DNA of 64,000 bases from Candidatus Limnocylindria bacterium (GCA_036565345.1 DATCNH010000081.1:2118-66117); one strand, 5' to 3'; positions 1,599 through 10,337 are shown, counted from the stretch's first letter. Numbers and translations: made by a program. The notes: generated by a model not told the origin, from the sequence alone.

Positions 1599-2210
1599 CT
1601 ACTCGTCGAGGGCAACGACGTACGCGCGCACCGCCCGGGCACCGCAGGCGCGTGCCGCGGCGGCCGCGTCGCGAAGCGTCGCCCCGGTGGTGGCGACATC
1701 GTCCACCAGCGCCACCCGGCCGCCACGAAGCGCGCCGGCCGTTCCGACGAACGCCGAGCACACATTCGCCGCGCGGCCCTGCCGGTCCAGCCGGACCTGC
1801 GCGGTCCCGCCACGGATCCGGTGGAGCGCGGCGACGAGCGGCACGGCGGTGTGCTGCGCGGCGACCGTCGCGAGGAGCATCGCCTGGTCGTAGCCGCGCT
1901 CCCGTCGCCGCGCGGGATGGAGACGCACCGGAACGAGCGCGTCGAGTTGTGCGCCACGGGCCAGATCGCCGGCGACCGCGGTCGCCACGAGCATCCCGAG
2001 CTCCTCGGTGAGCGCGGGCTGATCGCCGTACTTCGCGCTGTGGATCGCTTCGCGCAGTGGTCCCGCGTACGCCCCGCAGCCGGTGATCTCCAGTCCGCCG
2101 ACGGATCGCCGCAGCGGCTCCAGGCCATTGCGGCAGTCCAGGCAGAGCCAGGACCCGGGCAGGCCGCAGCCCGCGCAGCGCGGCGGAACGAGGAGATCGA
2201 GCGCGCTCAC
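1599..2210 (-). CDS. comF: ComF-family phosphoribosyltransferase (competence protein ComFC-like)
   Basis: N-terminal Cys4 cluster (PPRCAGCG...CLDC) plus a C-terminal PRTase motif (VALVDDVATTGATL). GTG start overlaps the upstream stop (GTGA at 2207-2210). Confidence 0.8.
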   Translation of the reverse strand: MSALDLLVPPRCAGCGLPGSWLCLDCRNGLEPLRRSVGGLEITGCGAYAGPLREAIHSAKYGDQPALTEELGMLVATAVAGDLARGAQLDALVPVRLHPARRRERGYDQAMLLATVAAQHTAVPLVAALHRIRGGTAQVRLDRQGRAANVCSAFVGTAGALRGGRVALVDDVATTGATLRDAAAAARACGARAVRAYVVALDE

Positions 2211-2548
2211 GGATCTTCGAAGACGAGGTCGTCCCCGGCTTGCGTGCCCGTCCGGGCGCAGGTCCCGGCAGCAAGCTCGATAACATCACGTGCGCCCCGG
2301 GCCGCCACCATCGGTACCCACGGACGGATATCTGGAGCGACCTTCAGGACCCGGCCGCCGCCGTCGACGAAGATCGCGTCGATCGCGAAGCGCATGAAGA
2401 ACATCGTGATCGACGAGGTCTTGGTGATCAGCAGCGCCTCCCCGTCGGCGAGCCTGCGGTGCAGGATGAGCCCGATGCCGCGGGAGAGGAAGGTGTCCGC
2501 GGTGCGGCAGTCGGTGGCGACGATCAGCCCCCGGGCACGGTTCCGCAG
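2207..2548 (-). CDS. DUF192-family protein (start codon uncertain, possibly CTG)
   Basis: Frame reads ...RGIGLILHRRLADGEALLITKTSSITMFFMRFAIDAIFVDGGGRVLKV...VIELAAGTCARTGTQAGDDLVFEDP, matching the DUF192 signature (RGLMgR...GMLF...FWM...PLDiiFiD...ElaaG). The homologous region extends 47 codons upstream of the first ATG (2404) up to an in-frame stop at 2579-2581, with no ATG/GTG/TTG. In-frame CTG codons lie at 2546-2548 and 2525-2527. Confidence 0.5.
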   Translation of the reverse strand: MRNRARGLIVATDCRTADTFLSRGIGLILHRRLADGEALLITKTSSITMFFMRFAIDAIFVDGGGRVLKVAPDIRPWVPMVAARGARDVIELAAGTCARTGTQAGDDLVFEDP

Positions 2549-2558
2549 GCGCCGGCCG

Positions 2559-3473
2559 TTAGAACTGACCGCAGCTGCTCATCGCCGAGAGCGCGGCGGG
2601 CGCCAGGATGACGATGAAGAGCGAGGGGAAGATGCAGCCGATCGTCGGGAGCATGATGAGGATCGGAGCCTTCGCTGCCTTCGCCTCCGCGCGCTGCCGG
2701 CGCTCGCCGCGCATCTGCTCCGACTGGATCCGGAGGACCTTCGACATCGAAACGCCGAGCTGATCGGCCTGGATGATCGCGGAGACGAAGTTCGAAAGCT
2801 CCTTCTGCTCGACCCGCTCGGTGATCCCCCGGAGCGCTTCCTGACGCGACTTCCCGACACGCTGCTCCGAGGCGGCCCGCTTGAATTCCTCGGACAGCGC
2901 GCCCTTGAGCTTCTCGGTGACCTTCACCAGCGCCGCGTCGAAGCCCAGACCGGCCTCCACCGAGATGGTGAGTAGGTCGAGCGCGTCCGGAAGGGACTCG
3001 AGGATCTCCGTCGAGCGCTTGCCGGCCTTGTTCCCCAGGTAGAAGTCCGGCGCCATGAATCCGAACACGAGGCCGCCGACCACGCCGCCGAGGGTCTGGA
3101 CCGGATCGCTCGTCATGAGGTTGACCAGAGCCGATACTCCGACCGCGCCCACGATCGCGGAGAACCCCTTCACGCCCAGGAAGAATTCGGTGCTCGTCGA
3201 CTCCATGCCGGCCCGCTTTAGCCGAAGGGTGAGGGCCCGAACCGTATTCGTCGGGTAGAACCGGCCGACGAGCCCCGAGAGCGCGCGGATGATCGGCTTG
3301 ATGGTGCGGTCGCCGATCGGACGGTTGAGCTCGAGCTCCTCGAGACTGCGTGGACGGACGGCGATCTGCTGCAGGCGAGCCTGCACCGGATCGAGCTGGC
3401 GCCCGAGCTGGAGGGAGACGAAGACCATGAGCACACCGGCGCTGGCAAGAACGGCGAAGATGACGGCTTCCAT
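2559..3473 (-). CDS. tadC: Flp pilus assembly platform protein TadC (T2SSF domain)
   Basis: TM-T2SSF-TM architecture with ...ISVEAGLGFDAALVKV... and a C-terminal APILIMLPTIGCIFPSLFIVILAP. ATG start at 3473. Confidence 0.85.
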   Translation of the reverse strand: MEAVIFAVLASAGVLMVFVSLQLGRQLDPVQARLQQIAVRPRSLEELELNRPIGDRTIKPIIRALSGLVGRFYPTNTVRALTLRLKRAGMESTSTEFFLGVKGFSAIVGAVGVSALVNLMTSDPVQTLGGVVGGLVFGFMAPDFYLGNKAGKRSTEILESLPDALDLLTISVEAGLGFDAALVKVTEKLKGALSEEFKRAASEQRVGKSRQEALRGITERVEQKELSNFVSAIIQADQLGVSMSKVLRIQSEQMRGERRQRAEAKAAKAPILIMLPTIGCIFPSLFIVILAPAALSAMSSCGQF

Positions 3474-3487
3474 CTGGATCGGCCTTC

Positions 3488-4462
3488 CTAGACCCTGATG
3501 TCCGTGATCTTGCGGATGGCGAGGAAGCCGATGGTCATCATGACCGCCCCGACGACGATGAGGATCCGGCCGATCGTCTGGGTGAACAGCGGCTCCATGA
3601 ATGCCGGGTTGATCGCGTTGAGCGCGGCGCCGAGGCCGATCGGGAGGAACGCCACCAAGTAGCCGGACACCCGTCCCTGGGCGGTGAGGGTGTTGATCTC
3701 GGCCTTGATCCGGACGCGCTCCCGGATCGTGAAGGCGATCGTGTCGAGGATCTCGGCGAGGTTCCCGCCGACCTGCTGCTGGATGCCGATCGCGGTCACC
3801 ATGAGATCGAGGTCATCGCTCTTGATGCGACGGACCAGGTTGTGCAGCGCCTCCTCCATGCCGAGGCCGAGGTTGACCTCGCGAACGACCCGGCCCATCT
3901 CCTCGCTCATCGGCGCCGCCGCCTCGCGAGACACGAGCTCGATGGACTGCAGAAAGCTCGATCCGGAGCGCAGCGCGTTCGAGAGAAGGCTCGTCGTGTC
4001 GGCCAGCTGCTTGTTGAACGCCTTGAGGCGGCCACTGATCCGGCGACCGACCCAGATGCGCGGCAGGAAGTAGCCGAGCACGAACCCGAAGACCCCGGTG
4101 AGCGGATCCTTGAACACGAAGAGCAGGAGGCCGAGGCCGAGGGAGAGACCGATGCGGATGTAGTAGTACTCCGCCACGCGGAGCTGGAGGCTGGCGCGCG
4201 CAAGATCGCGCTGCACCTTCGTGGCGAATCGCTTGTCCTCGACGTCCGAGGAGAGCGTCGCGAACGGGTCCACTTCCTTCCGGGACCGCTTCCGCTTTCG
4301 GCTGCGACCGTCTGGCTTGTCCTTCGCCTGCTCGGACCCGCCGGCGTAGCGTGCCATGCGCGACTCGACGCTCTGTGAGCCGCCGCGGAACAACGACGAC
4401 GCGCCCCAGAAGAAGAGGAAGATGCCCATGAACAGCCCCGCCGGGATGGCGTACTGGGTCAT
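3488..4462 (-). CDS. tadB: Flp pilus assembly platform protein TadB (T2SSF domain)
   Basis: MTQYAIPAGLFMGIFLFF... start at ATG 4460-4462, which overlaps the cpaF stop (ATGA). T2SSF motifs ...LSNALRSGSSFLQSIELV... and a C-terminal TM. The 430-aa track ORF is over-extended. Confidence 0.85.
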   Translation of the reverse strand: MTQYAIPAGLFMGIFLFFWGASSLFRGGSQSVESRMARYAGGSEQAKDKPDGRSRKRKRSRKEVDPFATLSSDVEDKRFATKVQRDLARASLQLRVAEYYYIRIGLSLGLGLLLFVFKDPLTGVFGFVLGYFLPRIWVGRRISGRLKAFNKQLADTTSLLSNALRSGSSFLQSIELVSREAAAPMSEEMGRVVREVNLGLGMEEALHNLVRRIKSDDLDLMVTAIGIQQQVGGNLAEILDTIAFTIRERVRIKAEINTLTAQGRVSGYLVAFLPIGLGAALNAINPAFMEPLFTQTIGRILIVVGAVMMTIGFLAIRKITDIRV

Positions 4463-5856
4463 CGGAGCCCCTGGCTCATGTCGCCGAAGACCCCCTGTGG
4501 CAGGCGGATGCCGGCGGCCTCGAACTTCTCGGAGAACTTGGGCCGGATGCCGGTCGGCCGAAGCCGGCCGACGACCTTCCCGTCGACGTAGCCGGTCTGC
4601 TCGAAGACGAAGACGTCCTGGAGGATGATCGCGTCGCCCTCCATGCCCTGCACCTCGGTGACATGCGTCACCTTGCGCGACCCATCCTTGAGGCGCGAGA
4701 TCTGCACGATGACATCGAGCGCGCTCGCGATCTGTTCCTTGATCGCCCGCGACGGGAGGTCGACGCCGGCCATGAGGCACATCGTCTCGATACGGGCCAG
4801 CATGTCGCGAGGTGAGTTCGCGTGGCCGGTGGACAGTGAGCCGTCGTGACCGGTGTTCATCGCCTGGAGCATCGAGAGGGCCTCGCCACCACGGATCTCA
4901 CCGACCACGATCCGCTCGGGGCGCATCCGGAGGGCGTTCTTCACCAGATCCATGATCGTGACCGCGCCCTTGCCCTCGATATTCGCGGCGCGCGACTCGA
5001 GCCGGACGACGTGGTCCTGCACGAGCCGCAGTTCCGCAGCGTCCTCGATGGTGATGATCCGCTCATCCTCGGGAATGAATCCGGACATGATGTTCAAGAG
5101 CGTGGTCTTTCCTGAACCGGTGCCCCCGGAGACGAACATGTTGAGTCGGGCTTCGACGCACGCCCGGAGGAACTCCATCATCTCCTCGGTCGCGGTGCCG
5201 AACTTGATGTAGTCCTGGACTTGGATCCGGTACTTGGGGAACTTCCGGATCGTGACCACCGGACCGTTCAGCGCGAGCGGCGGGATGATGATGTTCACCC
5301 GCGAGCCGTCCGGGAGACGCGCATCCTCGTAGGGCTTCGACTCGTCGACCCGGCGGCCGATCGGAGCGATGATCCGTTCGATCACTCGCATGACATGGTC
5401 GTCGCTCTGGAAGGTCACATCGGACAGCTGGAGCTTTCCTTTCCGCTCGATGTAGACCCGGAACGGCCCGTTCACCATGACCTCGGTGATCGAGTCATCG
5501 TTTAGGAGGGGCTGGATCGGCCCGAAGCCAAGGATCTCGTCGACGATCTGGTCGAGCATCCGCTGGCGCTCGACCCGGGTGATGACCACGCCTTCCTCGT
5601 CGAGGTAGCGATTGAACATCTCTTCGATGTTCGAGCGGACCGCCTTCACGTCGGACAGGTCGAGGCGCGGATCGAGATTGTTGATGATCTTCGTCTGCAG
5701 CTGGACCCGTAGGTCGCGGTTGCCGTCCCGGGCCGGGGCGACGCTCTGGGTGAGGGGGCCGTTGTCATGCGGTGGCCGCCCGTCGGCCGAGGGTGGGGCG
5801 GCAAGCTCGGGAGTCCCGACCGGCCGGGCGCCTTCGATGCGCTTCAGAAGTGACAT
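4459..5856 (-). CDS. cpaF: Flp pilus assembly secretion ATPase CpaF/TadA
   Basis: Walker A (GGTGSGKTT), Asp box, Walker B and His box (VGEIRGGEA...NTGHDGSLSTGHAN). ATG at 5854-5856 (MSLLKRIEG...) preceded by AAGGG. Confidence 0.9.
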   Translation of the reverse strand: MSLLKRIEGARPVGTPELAAPPSADGRPPHDNGPLTQSVAPARDGNRDLRVQLQTKIINNLDPRLDLSDVKAVRSNIEEMFNRYLDEEGVVITRVERQRMLDQIVDEILGFGPIQPLLNDDSITEVMVNGPFRVYIERKGKLQLSDVTFQSDDHVMRVIERIIAPIGRRVDESKPYEDARLPDGSRVNIIIPPLALNGPVVTIRKFPKYRIQVQDYIKFGTATEEMMEFLRACVEARLNMFVSGGTGSGKTTLLNIMSGFIPEDERIITIEDAAELRLVQDHVVRLESRAANIEGKGAVTIMDLVKNALRMRPERIVVGEIRGGEALSMLQAMNTGHDGSLSTGHANSPRDMLARIETMCLMAGVDLPSRAIKEQIASALDVIVQISRLKDGSRKVTHVTEVQGMEGDAIILQDVFVFEQTGYVDGKVVGRLRPTGIRPKFSEKFEAAGIRLPQGVFGDMSQGLR

Positions 5857-5994
5857 CTCTACCCTTAACCCAACCTTCCAGCGCACGTTATCCGGTGCGG
5901 GGGCCGCCCGCAGGACCGGTCCCACGACCGTACGGTCTCGCCGGATGGACCGAAAGGGGTCCTTTCGGGCTATTTTTCGGCCGCGAAGGGCCTG

Positions 5995-7263: not shown

Positions 7264-7779
7264 TCATGATATGGGGCGGAGCTGGAAGACCAGCGCGATC
7301 AGCGCGCCGAGCCCAAGAGCCACGCCGTAGGGGATCCAAGTCTTCATCAGGGCGTGCATCGTATTGGGGGGATCCCCTGGCGCCGGCCGGCTCAGGCGGC
7401 GTAGGACGATGAAGACGATGGCGATGATGCCGCCGGTGAGCGCACCCCAGACCGCGGCCTGGAGCAGGAACGCGGTCCCCTTGAGGGCGCCCACGGCCAT
7501 GAGGAGCTTTCCGTCCCCGGCCTTCAGGCCACCTGCGGCGTAGAAGGGGTACGAGACCAAGAACCCGACGACGAGCCCGGCCAGATGGTCGAGCAGGCCC
7601 CCAGCGAGCGGACCGCCAGGAAAGCCCGCCGGCCCGGCGAAGCTCTCAGCGAGACCGAACAGGATCCCGACGAGCATCGCCGGATAGGTCGCGACGTTCG
7701 GGATGCGCCGGAACCGCCAATCGGTCCAGATGACCGTCAGGACGAAGCCGACCAGGACCGCATCCTCGGCGATCTCCAG
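7264..7779 (-). CDS. cpaA: prepilin peptidase CpaA/TadV (A24 family), likely non-canonical start
   Basis: The track ORF (7264-7677, MLVGILFGL...) is the conserved core. The same frame continues upstream as ...LEIAEDAVLVGFVLTVIWTDWRFRRIPNVATYPA and contains the family hallmark D-x-R-x-RRIPN plus the first TM helix. There is no ATG/GTG/TTG up to the in-frame stop at 7882-7884. The CTG at 7777-7779 would give MEIAEDAVLVGF... Confidence 0.7.
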   Translation of the reverse strand: MEIAEDAVLVGFVLTVIWTDWRFRRIPNVATYPAMLVGILFGLAESFAGPAGFPGGPLAGGLLDHLAGLVVGFLVSYPFYAAGGLKAGDGKLLMAVGALKGTAFLLQAAVWGALTGGIIAIVFIVLRRLSRPAPGDPPNTMHALMKTWIPYGVALGLGALIALVFQLRPIS

Positions 7780-7868
7780 CGCGTCGATGAGCCACCCCTC
7801 TCCGCTGATGAAAAAGGCGGCGCCCGCCGACTGCGGGCGCCGCCTGGACCGTATCCGGATCGGACCGA

Positions 7869-8027
7869 CTAGGTGAGGTTGTTACCGATGTTGCTGAAGA
7901 TGTTCTGGATCTGCCCGCGAAGGAAGATCATCGCAACGATGACCGCGATCGCGATGACGGCGATGATGAGTGCATATTCGACGAGTCCCTGACCGTCGTC
8001 GTCGCGGAAGAAGCGCTGAATGTCCAT
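7869..8027 (-). CDS. flp: Flp-family type IVb pilin precursor
   Basis: MDIQRFFRDDDGQGLVEYALIIAVIAIAVIVAMIF... carries the Flp motif G/QGLVEYAL followed by a hydrophobic helix. ATG at 8025-8027 is preceded by a perfect AAGGAG. Confidence 0.85.
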   Translation of the reverse strand: MDIQRFFRDDDGQGLVEYALIIAVIAIAVIVAMIFLRGQIQNIFSNIGNNLT

Positions 8028-8157: not shown

Positions 8158-9231
8158 CTAGGGGCCGCTGACCGAGAGGAGCGGCGGGCCGAGGAAGACG
8201 ATCAGGAGCGCCGGGAGGACGCAGAAGGTGAGCGGGAAGAGGAGCAGGACCGGCAGGCGGCGGGCGCGCGTCTCGGCCCGCCGACGCTCGCTCTCCCGGA
8301 GCGCGTCGGCCTGCGTGACCAGCAGCTCGGCGAGGGGGGAGCCGAAGCGTGAGGCGGCATCCACGAGCGCGGCGATCCGAGCCTCCTGCGGGCCGGCCGC
8401 GGCGAAGGCGGCGAACGCGAGACGGGGTGGCCGGCCCAGCCGGAGATCGGCGAGCAGCCGACGAGCCTCCGGGAGCCGGGCGACACGCGAGGCCCGCTCC
8501 ACGAGGGCCGCAAGCGCCTGCTCGAAGGTCAGTCCCGCCTCCAGACCCACGACGACCGCATCGACGAGCGACGCGAGCTCCGGCGAGCCCGCCGGCGGAC
8601 GGGTCAACCGCCGCAGCCACAGCGCACCGATGACTTCGAGGGCGATCGCCGCCACGAGCAGCCCACGGCCCCGCCCGGTGAAGATCGCGATGTAGTCCGG
8701 CGAGAGGATCGCGAAGGCGATCGCCCCGAGCGGCGCCAGACCGAGGAGCACCGCCGCCGACATGCGGCTCTGCGCGGTGAGCGCACTCCGCTCGTCGTCA
8801 AGGGCGAGGCGGCCACGCAGCAGTCGTGCGACCCGGCCGAGACTACGTCCGATCGGCCCGCCGGTGCGGGCGAAGGCGACCAGCACCACCGCGAACGGCG
8901 CCACATCCTCCTCGGGAATGACTCCGGAGTAGCTCGCGAGGGCGCGTCCCACCGGGTCTCCGATCGATAGGGTCGCCGCCGCACGCGCCGTCGCGCGTCC
9001 GAGCTCGCGAGGAAGCGCCGCGGCCACCTCGGAAAAGGCCCGCTCCAACGACAGTCCGGCGCCGAGGGCCGCACCGACCGCATCGATGAGGCCGGGGAAC
9101 GCGGCCCGCGCCTGCCGATCGGCCCCGCGCAGACCGGCGAGCCGGCGCCGGATGGCGTGCACCCGCGCGGCCGGCAGCAGGCCGCTCACGACGAGGATGC
9201 CGCCGCCCGCCAGGAGGGCCGCGGTCAGCAC
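8158..9231 (-). CDS. Tad platform protein with two T2SSF domains (fused TadB/TadC-like)
   Basis: N-terminal TM, T2SSF-like block 1 (...GAGLSLERAFSEVAAALPRELG...), central TM pair, T2SSF block 2 (...VVGLEAGLTFEQALAALV...RARRLPVLLLFPLTFCVLPALLIVFLGPP). GTG start at 9231. Confidence 0.7.
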   Translation of the reverse strand: MLTAALLAGGGILVVSGLLPAARVHAIRRRLAGLRGADRQARAAFPGLIDAVGAALGAGLSLERAFSEVAAALPRELGRATARAAATLSIGDPVGRALASYSGVIPEEDVAPFAVVLVAFARTGGPIGRSLGRVARLLRGRLALDDERSALTAQSRMSAAVLLGLAPLGAIAFAILSPDYIAIFTGRGRGLLVAAIALEVIGALWLRRLTRPPAGSPELASLVDAVVVGLEAGLTFEQALAALVERASRVARLPEARRLLADLRLGRPPRLAFAAFAAAGPQEARIAALVDAASRFGSPLAELLVTQADALRESERRRAETRARRLPVLLLFPLTFCVLPALLIVFLGPPLLSVSGP

Positions 9232-10337
9232 GCGATCGGCACGGGGCGCAGGACGTGATCGGCCGCCTCGGGATCCACCTCCACGATCTCGACGATCCGG
9301 CGACGGCCATCGGGGCCGCGCTCCTGGTGGACCACCAGCTCGATGCCCCGATGGATCTGCTCGCGGATCACCGCGATCGGCAGGTCCACGCCTCCCATGA
9401 GGGCCATCGTCTCCAGCCGGAGGAGTGCGTGATACGCGCTGTTCGCGTGCGCGGTGGTCAGCGAGCCGCGATGCCCGGTGTTCATCGCCTGGAGCATGTC
9501 GAGCGCTTCGCCTCCCCGGACCTCGCCCACGATGATCCGGTCAGGCCGCATCCGAAGCGCGTTCCGGAGGAGCGTGCGCACGTCGATCGCACCGGTGCCC
9601 TCCACGCTCGCGGGGCGCGTCTCGAGCGCGACCACGTTCGCCTGCGGCAAACGCAGCTCGGCGGCATCCTCGATGGTGACCACCCGCTCTTCGGGAGCGA
9701 TGCCGTGGGCCAGGGCATTCAGGGTGGTCGTCTTGCCGCTCGAGGTCCCGCCCGAAATGAGGATGCTCCGGCGCGCGGCGACCGCGGCCACGAGGAACGC
9801 GATCGTCTGGGCGGGGGCCGTCCCGGCACGGACGAGATCGTCCGGTCCGAGCGCACGCGGACCGAACCGCCGGATGGTGAGGATGGGTCCGGCGATCGCC
9901 ACAGGCGCGATGACCGCGTGGACCCGCGAGCCATCCGGAAGTCGGGCATCGACCAGCGGGTTCGCCAGGTCGATCCGTCGGCCGAGCGGCGCGACGAGCC
10001 GCTCGATGAGGACCAGGATCTCCTCAGGATCGCGAAACCGGATCGGGACCGGCTCGATCCGTCCGGCGCGCTCCACCCAGACCCCGCGAGTGCCATTCAC
10101 CATGATCTCGGTCACCCGCTCGTCGCGAAGGAGCGGGGCGAGCTCACCCAGTCCGAAAAAACGATCGTGGAGCCACCGCTCGACTGCGGCGAGCTCGACC
10201 GACGACAGGGCGACACGCTCGGCCGCCGCGCTCTCCCGGAGGATGATCCCAAGCTGATCGGCCCGTGGCCGCCCCTGCTCGCTCTCCCGCAACCGCGCCG
10301 CGACCGCGCGCTCGAGGCGGTCGCGCATGGCGGTCAT
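9225..10337 (-). CDS. second CpaF/TadA-family secretion ATPase
   Basis: Walker A GGTSSGKTTTLNAL, Asp box and His box (EVRGGEALDMLQAMNTGHRGSLTTAHANS). ATG at 10335-10337 overlaps the upstream stop (ATGA). Confidence 0.9.
   Translation of the reverse strand: MTAMRDRLERAVAARLRESEQGRPRADQLGIILRESAAAERVALSSVELAAVERWLHDRFFGLGELAPLLRDERVTEIMVNGTRGVWVERAGRIEPVPIRFRDPEEILVLIERLVAPLGRRIDLANPLVDARLPDGSRVHAVIAPVAIAGPILTIRRFGPRALGPDDLVRAGTAPAQTIAFLVAAVAARRSILISGGTSSGKTTTLNALAHGIAPEERVVTIEDAAELRLPQANVVALETRPASVEGTGAIDVRTLLRNALRMRPDRIIVGEVRGGEALDMLQAMNTGHRGSLTTAHANSAYHALLRLETMALMGGVDLPIAVIREQIHRGIELVVHQERGPDGRRRIVEIVEVDPEAADHVLRPVPIAC

Follow-up and report, generated by a model that had tools for sequence, protein, structure and literature searches.

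The question raised by the stretch of DNA described here is where translation of its prepilin peptidase gene begins. The stretch, 64,000 nucleotides (nt) from Candidatus Limnocylindria bacterium (GCA_036565345.1, DATCNH010000081.1:2118-66117; hereafter the window), carries on its minus strand a gene of the cpaA/tadV type whose first canonical start codon, ATG 7677, is an internal codon of the reading frame. An earlier note on this DNA had described a frame running from the stop at 7884-7882 to this ATG without any ATG, GTG or TTG, and reading and translating the frame bore out every coordinate that it gave: none of the three codons occurs among the 68 which separate TAA 7884-7882 from ATG 7677. 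The peptide encoded before the ATG reads ...LIDALEIAEDAVLVGFVLTVIWTDWRFRRIPNVATYPAM and runs into Met38 as ...IDALEIAEDAVLVGFVLTVIWTDWRFRRIPNVATYPA-M, and it is in this region that the first transmembrane segment (TM1) and the first putative catalytic Asp, within TDWRFRRIPN, are encoded. Canonical-type codons account for 4.9% of the coding codons in the window, and the probability of 37 codons without any is P = 0.15; a stretch of this kind is unremarkable alone, its oddity being its place at the 5′ end of a gene. As far as the sequence can tell, cpaA must start at a non-canonical codon, and ATC 7788-7786 is probably that codon.

The assignment to the A24 peptidases, with an N-terminus lying upstream of the first canonical start, had likewise been proposed earlier and agrees with profile searches: the protein started at ATC scores 52.6 bits against Pfam Peptidase_A24 (PF01478; cut-off 26.5) and covers profile positions 2-104 of 104, whereas that started at ATG 7677 scores 27.2 bits and covers positions 44-104 only. 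Asp23 and Asp92 are invariant in homologue alignments A1 and A5 (26 and 52 sequences, respectively), and we take them to be the catalytic pair known from A24/GxGD proteases, as the Pfam profile and the fold match indicate. An AlphaFold model computed from the 52-sequence alignment attained a mean predicted local distance difference test (pLDDT) value of 88.4 and a predicted template modelling score of 0.82, with helix 1 spanning residues 3-26 (pLDDT 90-96). A Foldseek search of the PDB with this model returned the preflagellin peptidase FlaK (3s0x) with a probability of 1.00 and template modelling scores of 0.70/0.66, the next matches being at or below 0.27, while a sequence-only PDB search with the family profile yielded only spurious pentatricopeptide matches on 'PNVVTY' and no NCBIfam model matched the peptidase. 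Based on the two invariant Asp residues, the model and a fold match to FlaK alone, the gene is an intact, full-length prepilin peptidase of the TadV/CpaA type. Its 174-residue product carries a single A24 domain, which is the short form without the N-terminal methyltransferase region, and it is predicted to trim the adjacent Flp pilin as a GxGD aspartyl membrane protease with six helices.

The closest known counterparts are TadV of Aggregatibacter and CpaA of Caulobacter (MEROPS A24, PF01478), which share the peptidase-only form of approximately 170 residues, the two invariant Asp residues (one proximal to TM1, the other in a GxGD-like AGDGK) and the position of the gene directly after flp (G/XXXXEY) in a tad locus with CpaE-like, CpaF, TadB and TadC genes. 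The window gene differs from them in belonging to an uncultured soil member of the Chloroflexota (Limnocylindria) and in its predicted conserved AUC/AUA start in place of a canonical codon. FlaK has in common with the window peptidase the GxGD membrane protease fold and catalytic Asp residues in helix 1 and in a GxGD-type motif; it differs in being archaeal, in its other substrate, in an extra soluble insertion and in a sequence identity of only 17%.

One way to read the late ATG is that the gene is a decaying or truncated copy from which only a 137-residue product is made. ATG 7677 is the first canonical start, and the 137-residue form is held as 'prepilin peptidase CpaA' in four public collections (NCBI, JGI, ENA and Logan). 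Such a product would, however, be devoid of helix 1 (TM1) and of one catalytic residue, the invariant Asp23; the protein encoded by the 37 codons upstream of the ATG is conserved across 50 species, reaching 82-89% identity in close relatives; homologues keep Met38 invariant, at an internal position; and inspection of both tad modules revealed a single flp and a single peptidase gene. Truncation is hardly credible in the light of these observations, and the same arrangement is present in more than 30 independent assemblies of related species, as would befit the earlier suspicion that it is no one-off. Even less probable is an assembly or sequencing error that hides a canonical start, for example the GTG that lies in another frame, at 7795-7793, 7 nt upstream of the ATC. 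ATC-GAC with no canonical start is found again in assemblies obtained independently by many studies, an identical 137-residue product is encoded on nine contigs from four sources, and the GTG itself is unconserved and falls inside the Shine-Dalgarno (SD) sequence. A 49-codon open reading frame (ORF) beginning at this GTG (7646-7795, minus strand) and overlapping the 5′ end of cpaA was considered separately and rejected; the codon is GTA or GCA in relatives, and the GTG is therefore probably meaningless.

Orthologous loci were taken from 50 Limnocylindria species-representative genomes, and the codon aligned to the window ATC was tabulated. It is ATC in 19 loci, ATA in 12 and ATG in one, amounting to 32 of the 50 species; three loci have a CTG 2 nt after the flp stop, one has an ACG 1 nt after it, 12 have instead an ATG, GTG or TTG two to four codons upstream, and two are unclear. 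ATH (ATC or ATA in these loci) occupies the column in 10 of the 15 clusters (~75% identity) of the family. Many of these loci have an in-frame stop 2-8 codons before the column, for example at codon -2 in L001, -4 in L004 and -5 in most of the ATA clade, in which this TAA overlaps the SD as TAAGGGG. The closest relative, L001 (86% identity), reads ATC-GAC after its in-frame TAG at -2, which makes the conserved ATC-GAC pair the very beginning of the open frame. The next canonical codon comes only at +10 to +37, inside or beyond TM1, in 17 of the 31 ATH loci, and in six ATH loci it is the equivalent of ATG 7677.

The spacing of the SD and the choice of codon are in keeping with this position. 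An SD-like 5-mer is found 6-9 nt upstream of the column in all 31 ATH loci (gaps of 6, 7, 8 and 9 nt in 1, 14, 12 and 4 loci, respectively), and the ATG or GTG starts of flp in the same genomes show corresponding counts of 1, 31, 11 and 4; in the window, 6 nt separate GGAGAGGGG (7803-7795) from the ATC. ATA makes up 39% of codons at the start column (12/31) versus 3.4% of the internal Ile codons of cpaA (16/469; Fisher p = 5e-9, uncorrected for phylogeny), and the bodies of the 12 genes with an ATA start contain no internal ATA codon. CATCGACG is invariant in the six closest relatives, among which the in-frame peptides upstream of the ATC are unrelated to one another. The comparison with CpaA/TadV homologues that the earlier note had put forward as a check keeps Asp23 invariant and Met38 internal, and several homologues (P0011, P0013, P0014, P0017-P0019 and P0038) have ATG or GTG at the ATC column, their N-termini reading MDALRL..., MDTLRL... 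or VETLRL... from this residue. Upstream of the gene, a G-C-rich hairpin at 7845-7815 followed by five T residues resembles an intrinsic terminator; its stem of 13 pairs (12 of them G-C) is either unchanged or compensated in each of the six closest relatives. The start is therefore expected within the approximately 25 nt between the T-run and TM1. The features of the locus are collected in Table 1.

Table 1. Coordinates of the peptidase gene, its candidate start codons and the associated elements (window positions)
Feature	Position	Strand	Remarks
cpaA/tadV-type prepilin peptidase coding sequence, proposed	7264..7788	-	ATC 7788-7786 to TGA 7266-7264, 174 codons + stop
Proposed near-cognate start ATC	7786..7788	-	Aligned-codon comparison
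Shine-Dalgarno-like GGAGAGGGG(UGG)	7792..7803	-	Read from sequence; GGAGAGGGG itself at 7803-7795
CTG, rival or secondary start candidate, codon +3	7777..7779	-	
GAT, Asp23 in TDWRFRRIPN, upstream of ATG 7677	7720..7722	-	
GAC, Asp92 in GLKAGDGKL, GxGD-type motif	7513..7515	-	
First canonical ATG, Met38, internal codon	7675..7677	-	Start of the 137-residue public calls
Upstream ATC, NCBI start of the 198-residue HEY8656467.1	7858..7860	-	Judged incorrect
In-frame stop TAA bounding the open frame upstream	7884-7882	-	
flp pilin gene, 52 codons	7869..8027	-	ATG 8027; Pfam Flp_Fap 33.7 bits
Intrinsic-terminator-like hairpin + T5, between flp and cpaA	7811..7845	-	Terminator scan
DUF192 gene directly after tadC	2207-2548	-	First canonical codon ATG 2404, mid-domain

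A start at CTG 7779-7777, which the earlier note had named first as a typical CpaA start and which would yield MEIAEDAVLVGF... (171 residues), with the ATC either a leader Ile codon or used alongside it, is the only alternative to which we assign an appreciable, if small, probability. CTG is of about the same near-cognate strength as AUC (bioRxiv 10.1101/063800), a start there would keep TM1 and Asp23, and gene callers begin P0002 and L002 at this column. All six closest relatives have CTG or TTG in this column, TTG being a rare Leu codon at the local GC content. Against it, the CTG lies 15 nt from the SD, compared to the 6-9 nt observed for flp and the ATH codon; the column in many species outside the closest clade is GTA, CTT, CTA, GTC or GGA, which are unable to start translation; ATC-GAC follows immediately on the stop in L001; and those homologues that carry an ATG or GTG do so in the ATC column. 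The two starts would also predict different N-terminal peptides, MDALEIAEDAVLVGF from the ATC and MEIAEDAV from the CTG. The ATC had been listed earlier as the alternative on account of the SD 6 nt in front of it, and of the two candidates it is the one that the codon column, the upstream stops and the flp-like SD spacing favour.

Several points weigh against the ATC as the start and were taken into account in calling it probable. A conserved hydrophobic residue (I, M, L or V) at the ATC column would be equally expected of an internal codon; what carries the argument is the presence of stops upstream together with the spacing of the SD. As regards the latter, the measure takes the motif nearest to 7 nt and thereby narrows both the cpaA and the flp distributions. 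An NTG codon (N being any nucleotide) is always present at +2 or +3 in the six closest relatives, with CTG in the window and L001, TTG in L002 and L052, and GTG plus CTG in L054 and L056, and it is possible that the closest sub-clade starts at +2/+3 or initiates at both this codon and the ATC. Finally, the low-expression rationale set out below and the expected sensitivity to initiation factor 3 (IF3) and guanosine tetraphosphate (ppGpp) are extrapolated from Escherichia coli.

NCBI places the start elsewhere, at ATC 7860-7858, 8 nt after the flp stop, in the 198-residue HEY8656467.1 (P0393), whose sequence is identical to the window frame; the frame is indeed open from that codon, and as HEY8656467.1 is annotated from it, an automated pipeline has already accepted a non-canonical start for cpaA. 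The 24 extra codons, which include the peptide RIRSRRRPQSAGAAFFISGEGWL, correspond to the terminator hairpin and T-run, so that the annotated protein reads through the terminator, and no SD stands in front of this ATC. Moreover, the peptides encoded upstream show no relation to one another among six close relatives; in L001 the frame is interrupted by stops at -2 and -22, and in L054 and L056 none of the 32 upstream codons is start-like. It is also at the downstream ATC that both the modelled helix and the Pfam domain set in. Because the extension is unconserved in any close relative we judge this start to be wrong, and consider its use very improbable. Other pipelines report 159-residue forms from a GTG inside TM1, or 194-203-residue forms from inside or before the hairpin. 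A separate case is P0396 (JGI; 204 residues, on a 2322-nt contig), which is identical to the window peptidase from VLVGFVLTVIW onward and has as its N-terminus 40 unrelated residues with an ATG start and an extra hydrophobic segment; either the contig is chimeric, or the 5′ end has genuinely been replaced by one with a canonical start.

If translation does begin at ATC 7788-7786, the initiator formylmethionyl-tRNA would read the near-cognate AUC and a 174-residue protein beginning MDALEIAED... would result, as may be extrapolated from work in E. coli. In that organism initiation at AUC, AUA, AUU or CUG attains 1-2% of the AUG level, and a protein initiated at AUC was found to carry an N-terminal Met (bioRxiv 10.1101/063800), while in one reported case AUA reached 7.5% and AUU or AUC 5% of the AUG level (PMC5499595). 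The yield of the cpaA start would by analogy be a few per cent of that of AUG and would be sensitive to IF3 and ppGpp. The terminator hairpin would end most flp transcripts just before the AUC, and the weak AUC together with the terminator may keep the membrane protease low relative to the abundant pilin encoded in the same operon. Across the class Limnocylindria the AUC/AUA start would be an old, conserved trait of cpaA from which individual lineages have at times departed, by adopting AUG at the same codon, GUG or UUG two codons upstream, or CUG or ACG 1-2 nt after the flp stop.

The nearest parallel is infC, which encodes IF3, along with other conserved non-AUG starts. IF3 autoregulation acts on the AUU or AUC start of infC, and the same account describes non-AUG starts as more sensitive than AUG to ppGpp and nutrient limitation (PMC5499595). 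In common with cpaA, an AUH codon stands behind a normal SD at an orthologous position over a large clade, and from this likeness a low, IF3-sensitive initiation would be expected for cpaA (PMC5499595). The differences are that cpaA is another gene with another function and without an obvious autoregulatory loop, that it has AUC or AUA where infC has mainly AUU, and that some cpaA lineages instead use CUG or ACG coupled to an upstream stop. The literature searched contained no description of the proposed start position or of its class-wide conservation, and the predicted AUH start of cpaA is a new, well-conserved example of a known rare phenomenon.

The lineages with CTG or ACG differ in architecture. 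In one sub-clade, with L021, L026 and L042 (~3000) and L041 (~1733), spacer, terminator and SD are all missing in front of cpaA, whose conserved part opens with CTG (three loci) or ACG (one locus) 1-2 nt behind the flp stop; a canonical codon follows at +15 to +17, inside TM1. This looks like a termination-coupled restart at a near-cognate codon. The known coupled junctions (ATGA/TGATG; PMC6728339, PMC12548453) are similar to these four genes and to the DUF192 gene after tadC, and differ in that the restart codon is ATG, GTG or TTG rather than the CTG or ACG found here; a 2025 review of termination-reinitiation coupling does not mention near-cognate or other non-AUG restart codons. The cpaA gene of the window is itself unlike such junctions in possessing an 80-nt spacer, a terminator and an SD. 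Three loci display individual peculiarities. L021 (~2930-3000) repeats the 3′-terminal codons of flp (aat gac ctc acg tag) approximately 45 nt after the real flp stop and directly before the CTG of cpaA, which suggests a small duplication. In L031 (~3001), TGA-GGAGGG lies directly upstream and no canonical, ATH or CTG codon is present before +37, an ACG at +2 being the only start-like codon. In L028 (~3001), the TTG start of the clade reads TTC, with an ATC one codon earlier.

A further claim of the earlier note was that cpaA was the second independent case in the window and pointed to systematic non-canonical initiation. A second case does exist, in the DUF192 gene on the same strand, screened as the frame 2207-2578: of approximately 45 coding-like ORFs in the window, these two are the only ones with a domain reaching beyond their first canonical start on the upstream side, while in eight further ORFs with long start-free 5′ stretches a Pfam screen placed all domains downstream of the canonical start. 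In the 50 loci cpaF starts with ATG (42) or GTG (1), flp with ATG (38) or GTG (9), and the gene for the response-regulator/CpaE-like protein (RR-CpaE) with ATG, GTG or TTG. The predicted non-canonical initiation is thus systematic for cpaA across the class, in which respect the claim stands, and it is not genome-wide, in which respect it does not.

Public calls of the DUF192 gene comprise a truncated 65-residue form (P0150) and an NCBI form of 113 residues from CTG 2548-2546 (P0398). Comparison of 80 metagenome loci or contigs (among loci L054 and L057-L138) revealed that the N-terminal strand [LIV][RT]N[RT]T[RK]GT... lies 13-25 nt after the tadC stop without an SD, its variation being concentrated at third codon positions. 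Every one of the 33 unique sequences in the largest clade has an ACG 1 nt behind the TAG, whereas Thr codons elsewhere vary freely, and in L108 and L115 a CTG overlaps the tadC TGA as CTGA. The geometry stop-N-ACG or stop-NN-CTG is shared between DUF192 after tadC and cpaA in the four loci without a spacer. Two DUF192 clades are without any near-cognate codon; one of these has DUF192 in the reading frame of tadC with a single TAG between the two, an arrangement that would imply start-codon-independent restart or stop-codon recoding. Fusion of TadC and DUF192 by a single recoding mechanism was considered and is unlikely, because junctions in frames 0, +1 and -1 all occur; no natural fusion was seen among the best 150 of 5258 representatives. 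Among the individual loci, the called DUF192 start of L138 falls on an ATC; L052 (15228-15848), and also L053, has a frame-disrupted DUF192 remnant after tadC, followed by an intact, divergent DUF192 with its own start; and L122 (~960-1020) and L127 (~1440-1500) have an insertion of approximately 60 nt (caatctccgggctc.gcccaggagacacgctcagagcaggtggtg.ctag) between tadC and DUF192, partly repeated in L127, which brings an in-frame GTG GTG upstream of a T-I-R-G-P N-terminus.

A broader proposal would be that the tad operons of Limnocylindria routinely translate low-copy accessory genes (cpaA and DUF192) without canonical starts; we hold this to be doubtful. The routes may be three, namely an SD-driven AUC/AUA, a CUG/ACG restart 1-2 nt after a stop and, in the two DUF192 clades, no recognisable start. 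Of the two genes, the DUF192 junction is the more surprising lead.

The remainder of the locus is that of a Tad pilus; the GC content of the window is 69%, and the titles of homologues fit Candidatus Limnocylindria, phylum Chloroflexota. The flp gene has its SD (AAGGAGA) at 8040-8034 and encodes the processing motif G12/QGLVEY. On the 3′ side of cpaA are genes for a response-regulator/CpaE-like protein (ATG 7254), cpaF, tadB, tadC, DUF192 and a comF-like product, and genes with T2SSE and T2SSF domains were found downstream. A second tad module lies at ~8.1-13.7 kb, and relatives have the same gene order. The two modules together encode two CpaF-type ATPases (4459-5925 and 9225-10337, minus strand), and their genes for the T2SSF platform are separate. 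A single-sequence fold of the region 7750-7870 (z = -2.3) had offered a helix in which the stretch directly behind the flp stop, flanking the terminator on its 5′ side, pairs with GGAGAGGGGUGGCU and might thereby mask the SD. Covariation across the six relatives supported no spacer structure other than the terminator stem, and this helix was dropped for that reason.

The gene is currently stored in public databases in three wrong forms: the 137- and 159-residue proteins that are without a catalytic Asp or TM1, and the 194-204-residue proteins that run through the terminator. Surveys of Tad pili in Chloroflexota which rely on such calls would score the peptidase as defective or odd. For gene finders, the orthologues constitute a test set of 31 ATH, 3 CTG and 1 ACG (plus one probable ACG) starts alongside 14 canonical ones. 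Retention of AUC/AUA on one gene over a bacterial class, while its neighbours keep AUG, would represent a clean natural case, and it favours the notion that near-cognate starts are selected expression settings as opposed to annotation noise. In the Tad system of Limnocylindria, the effect of such a setting would be a membrane protease far scarcer than the very abundant pilin on which it acts.

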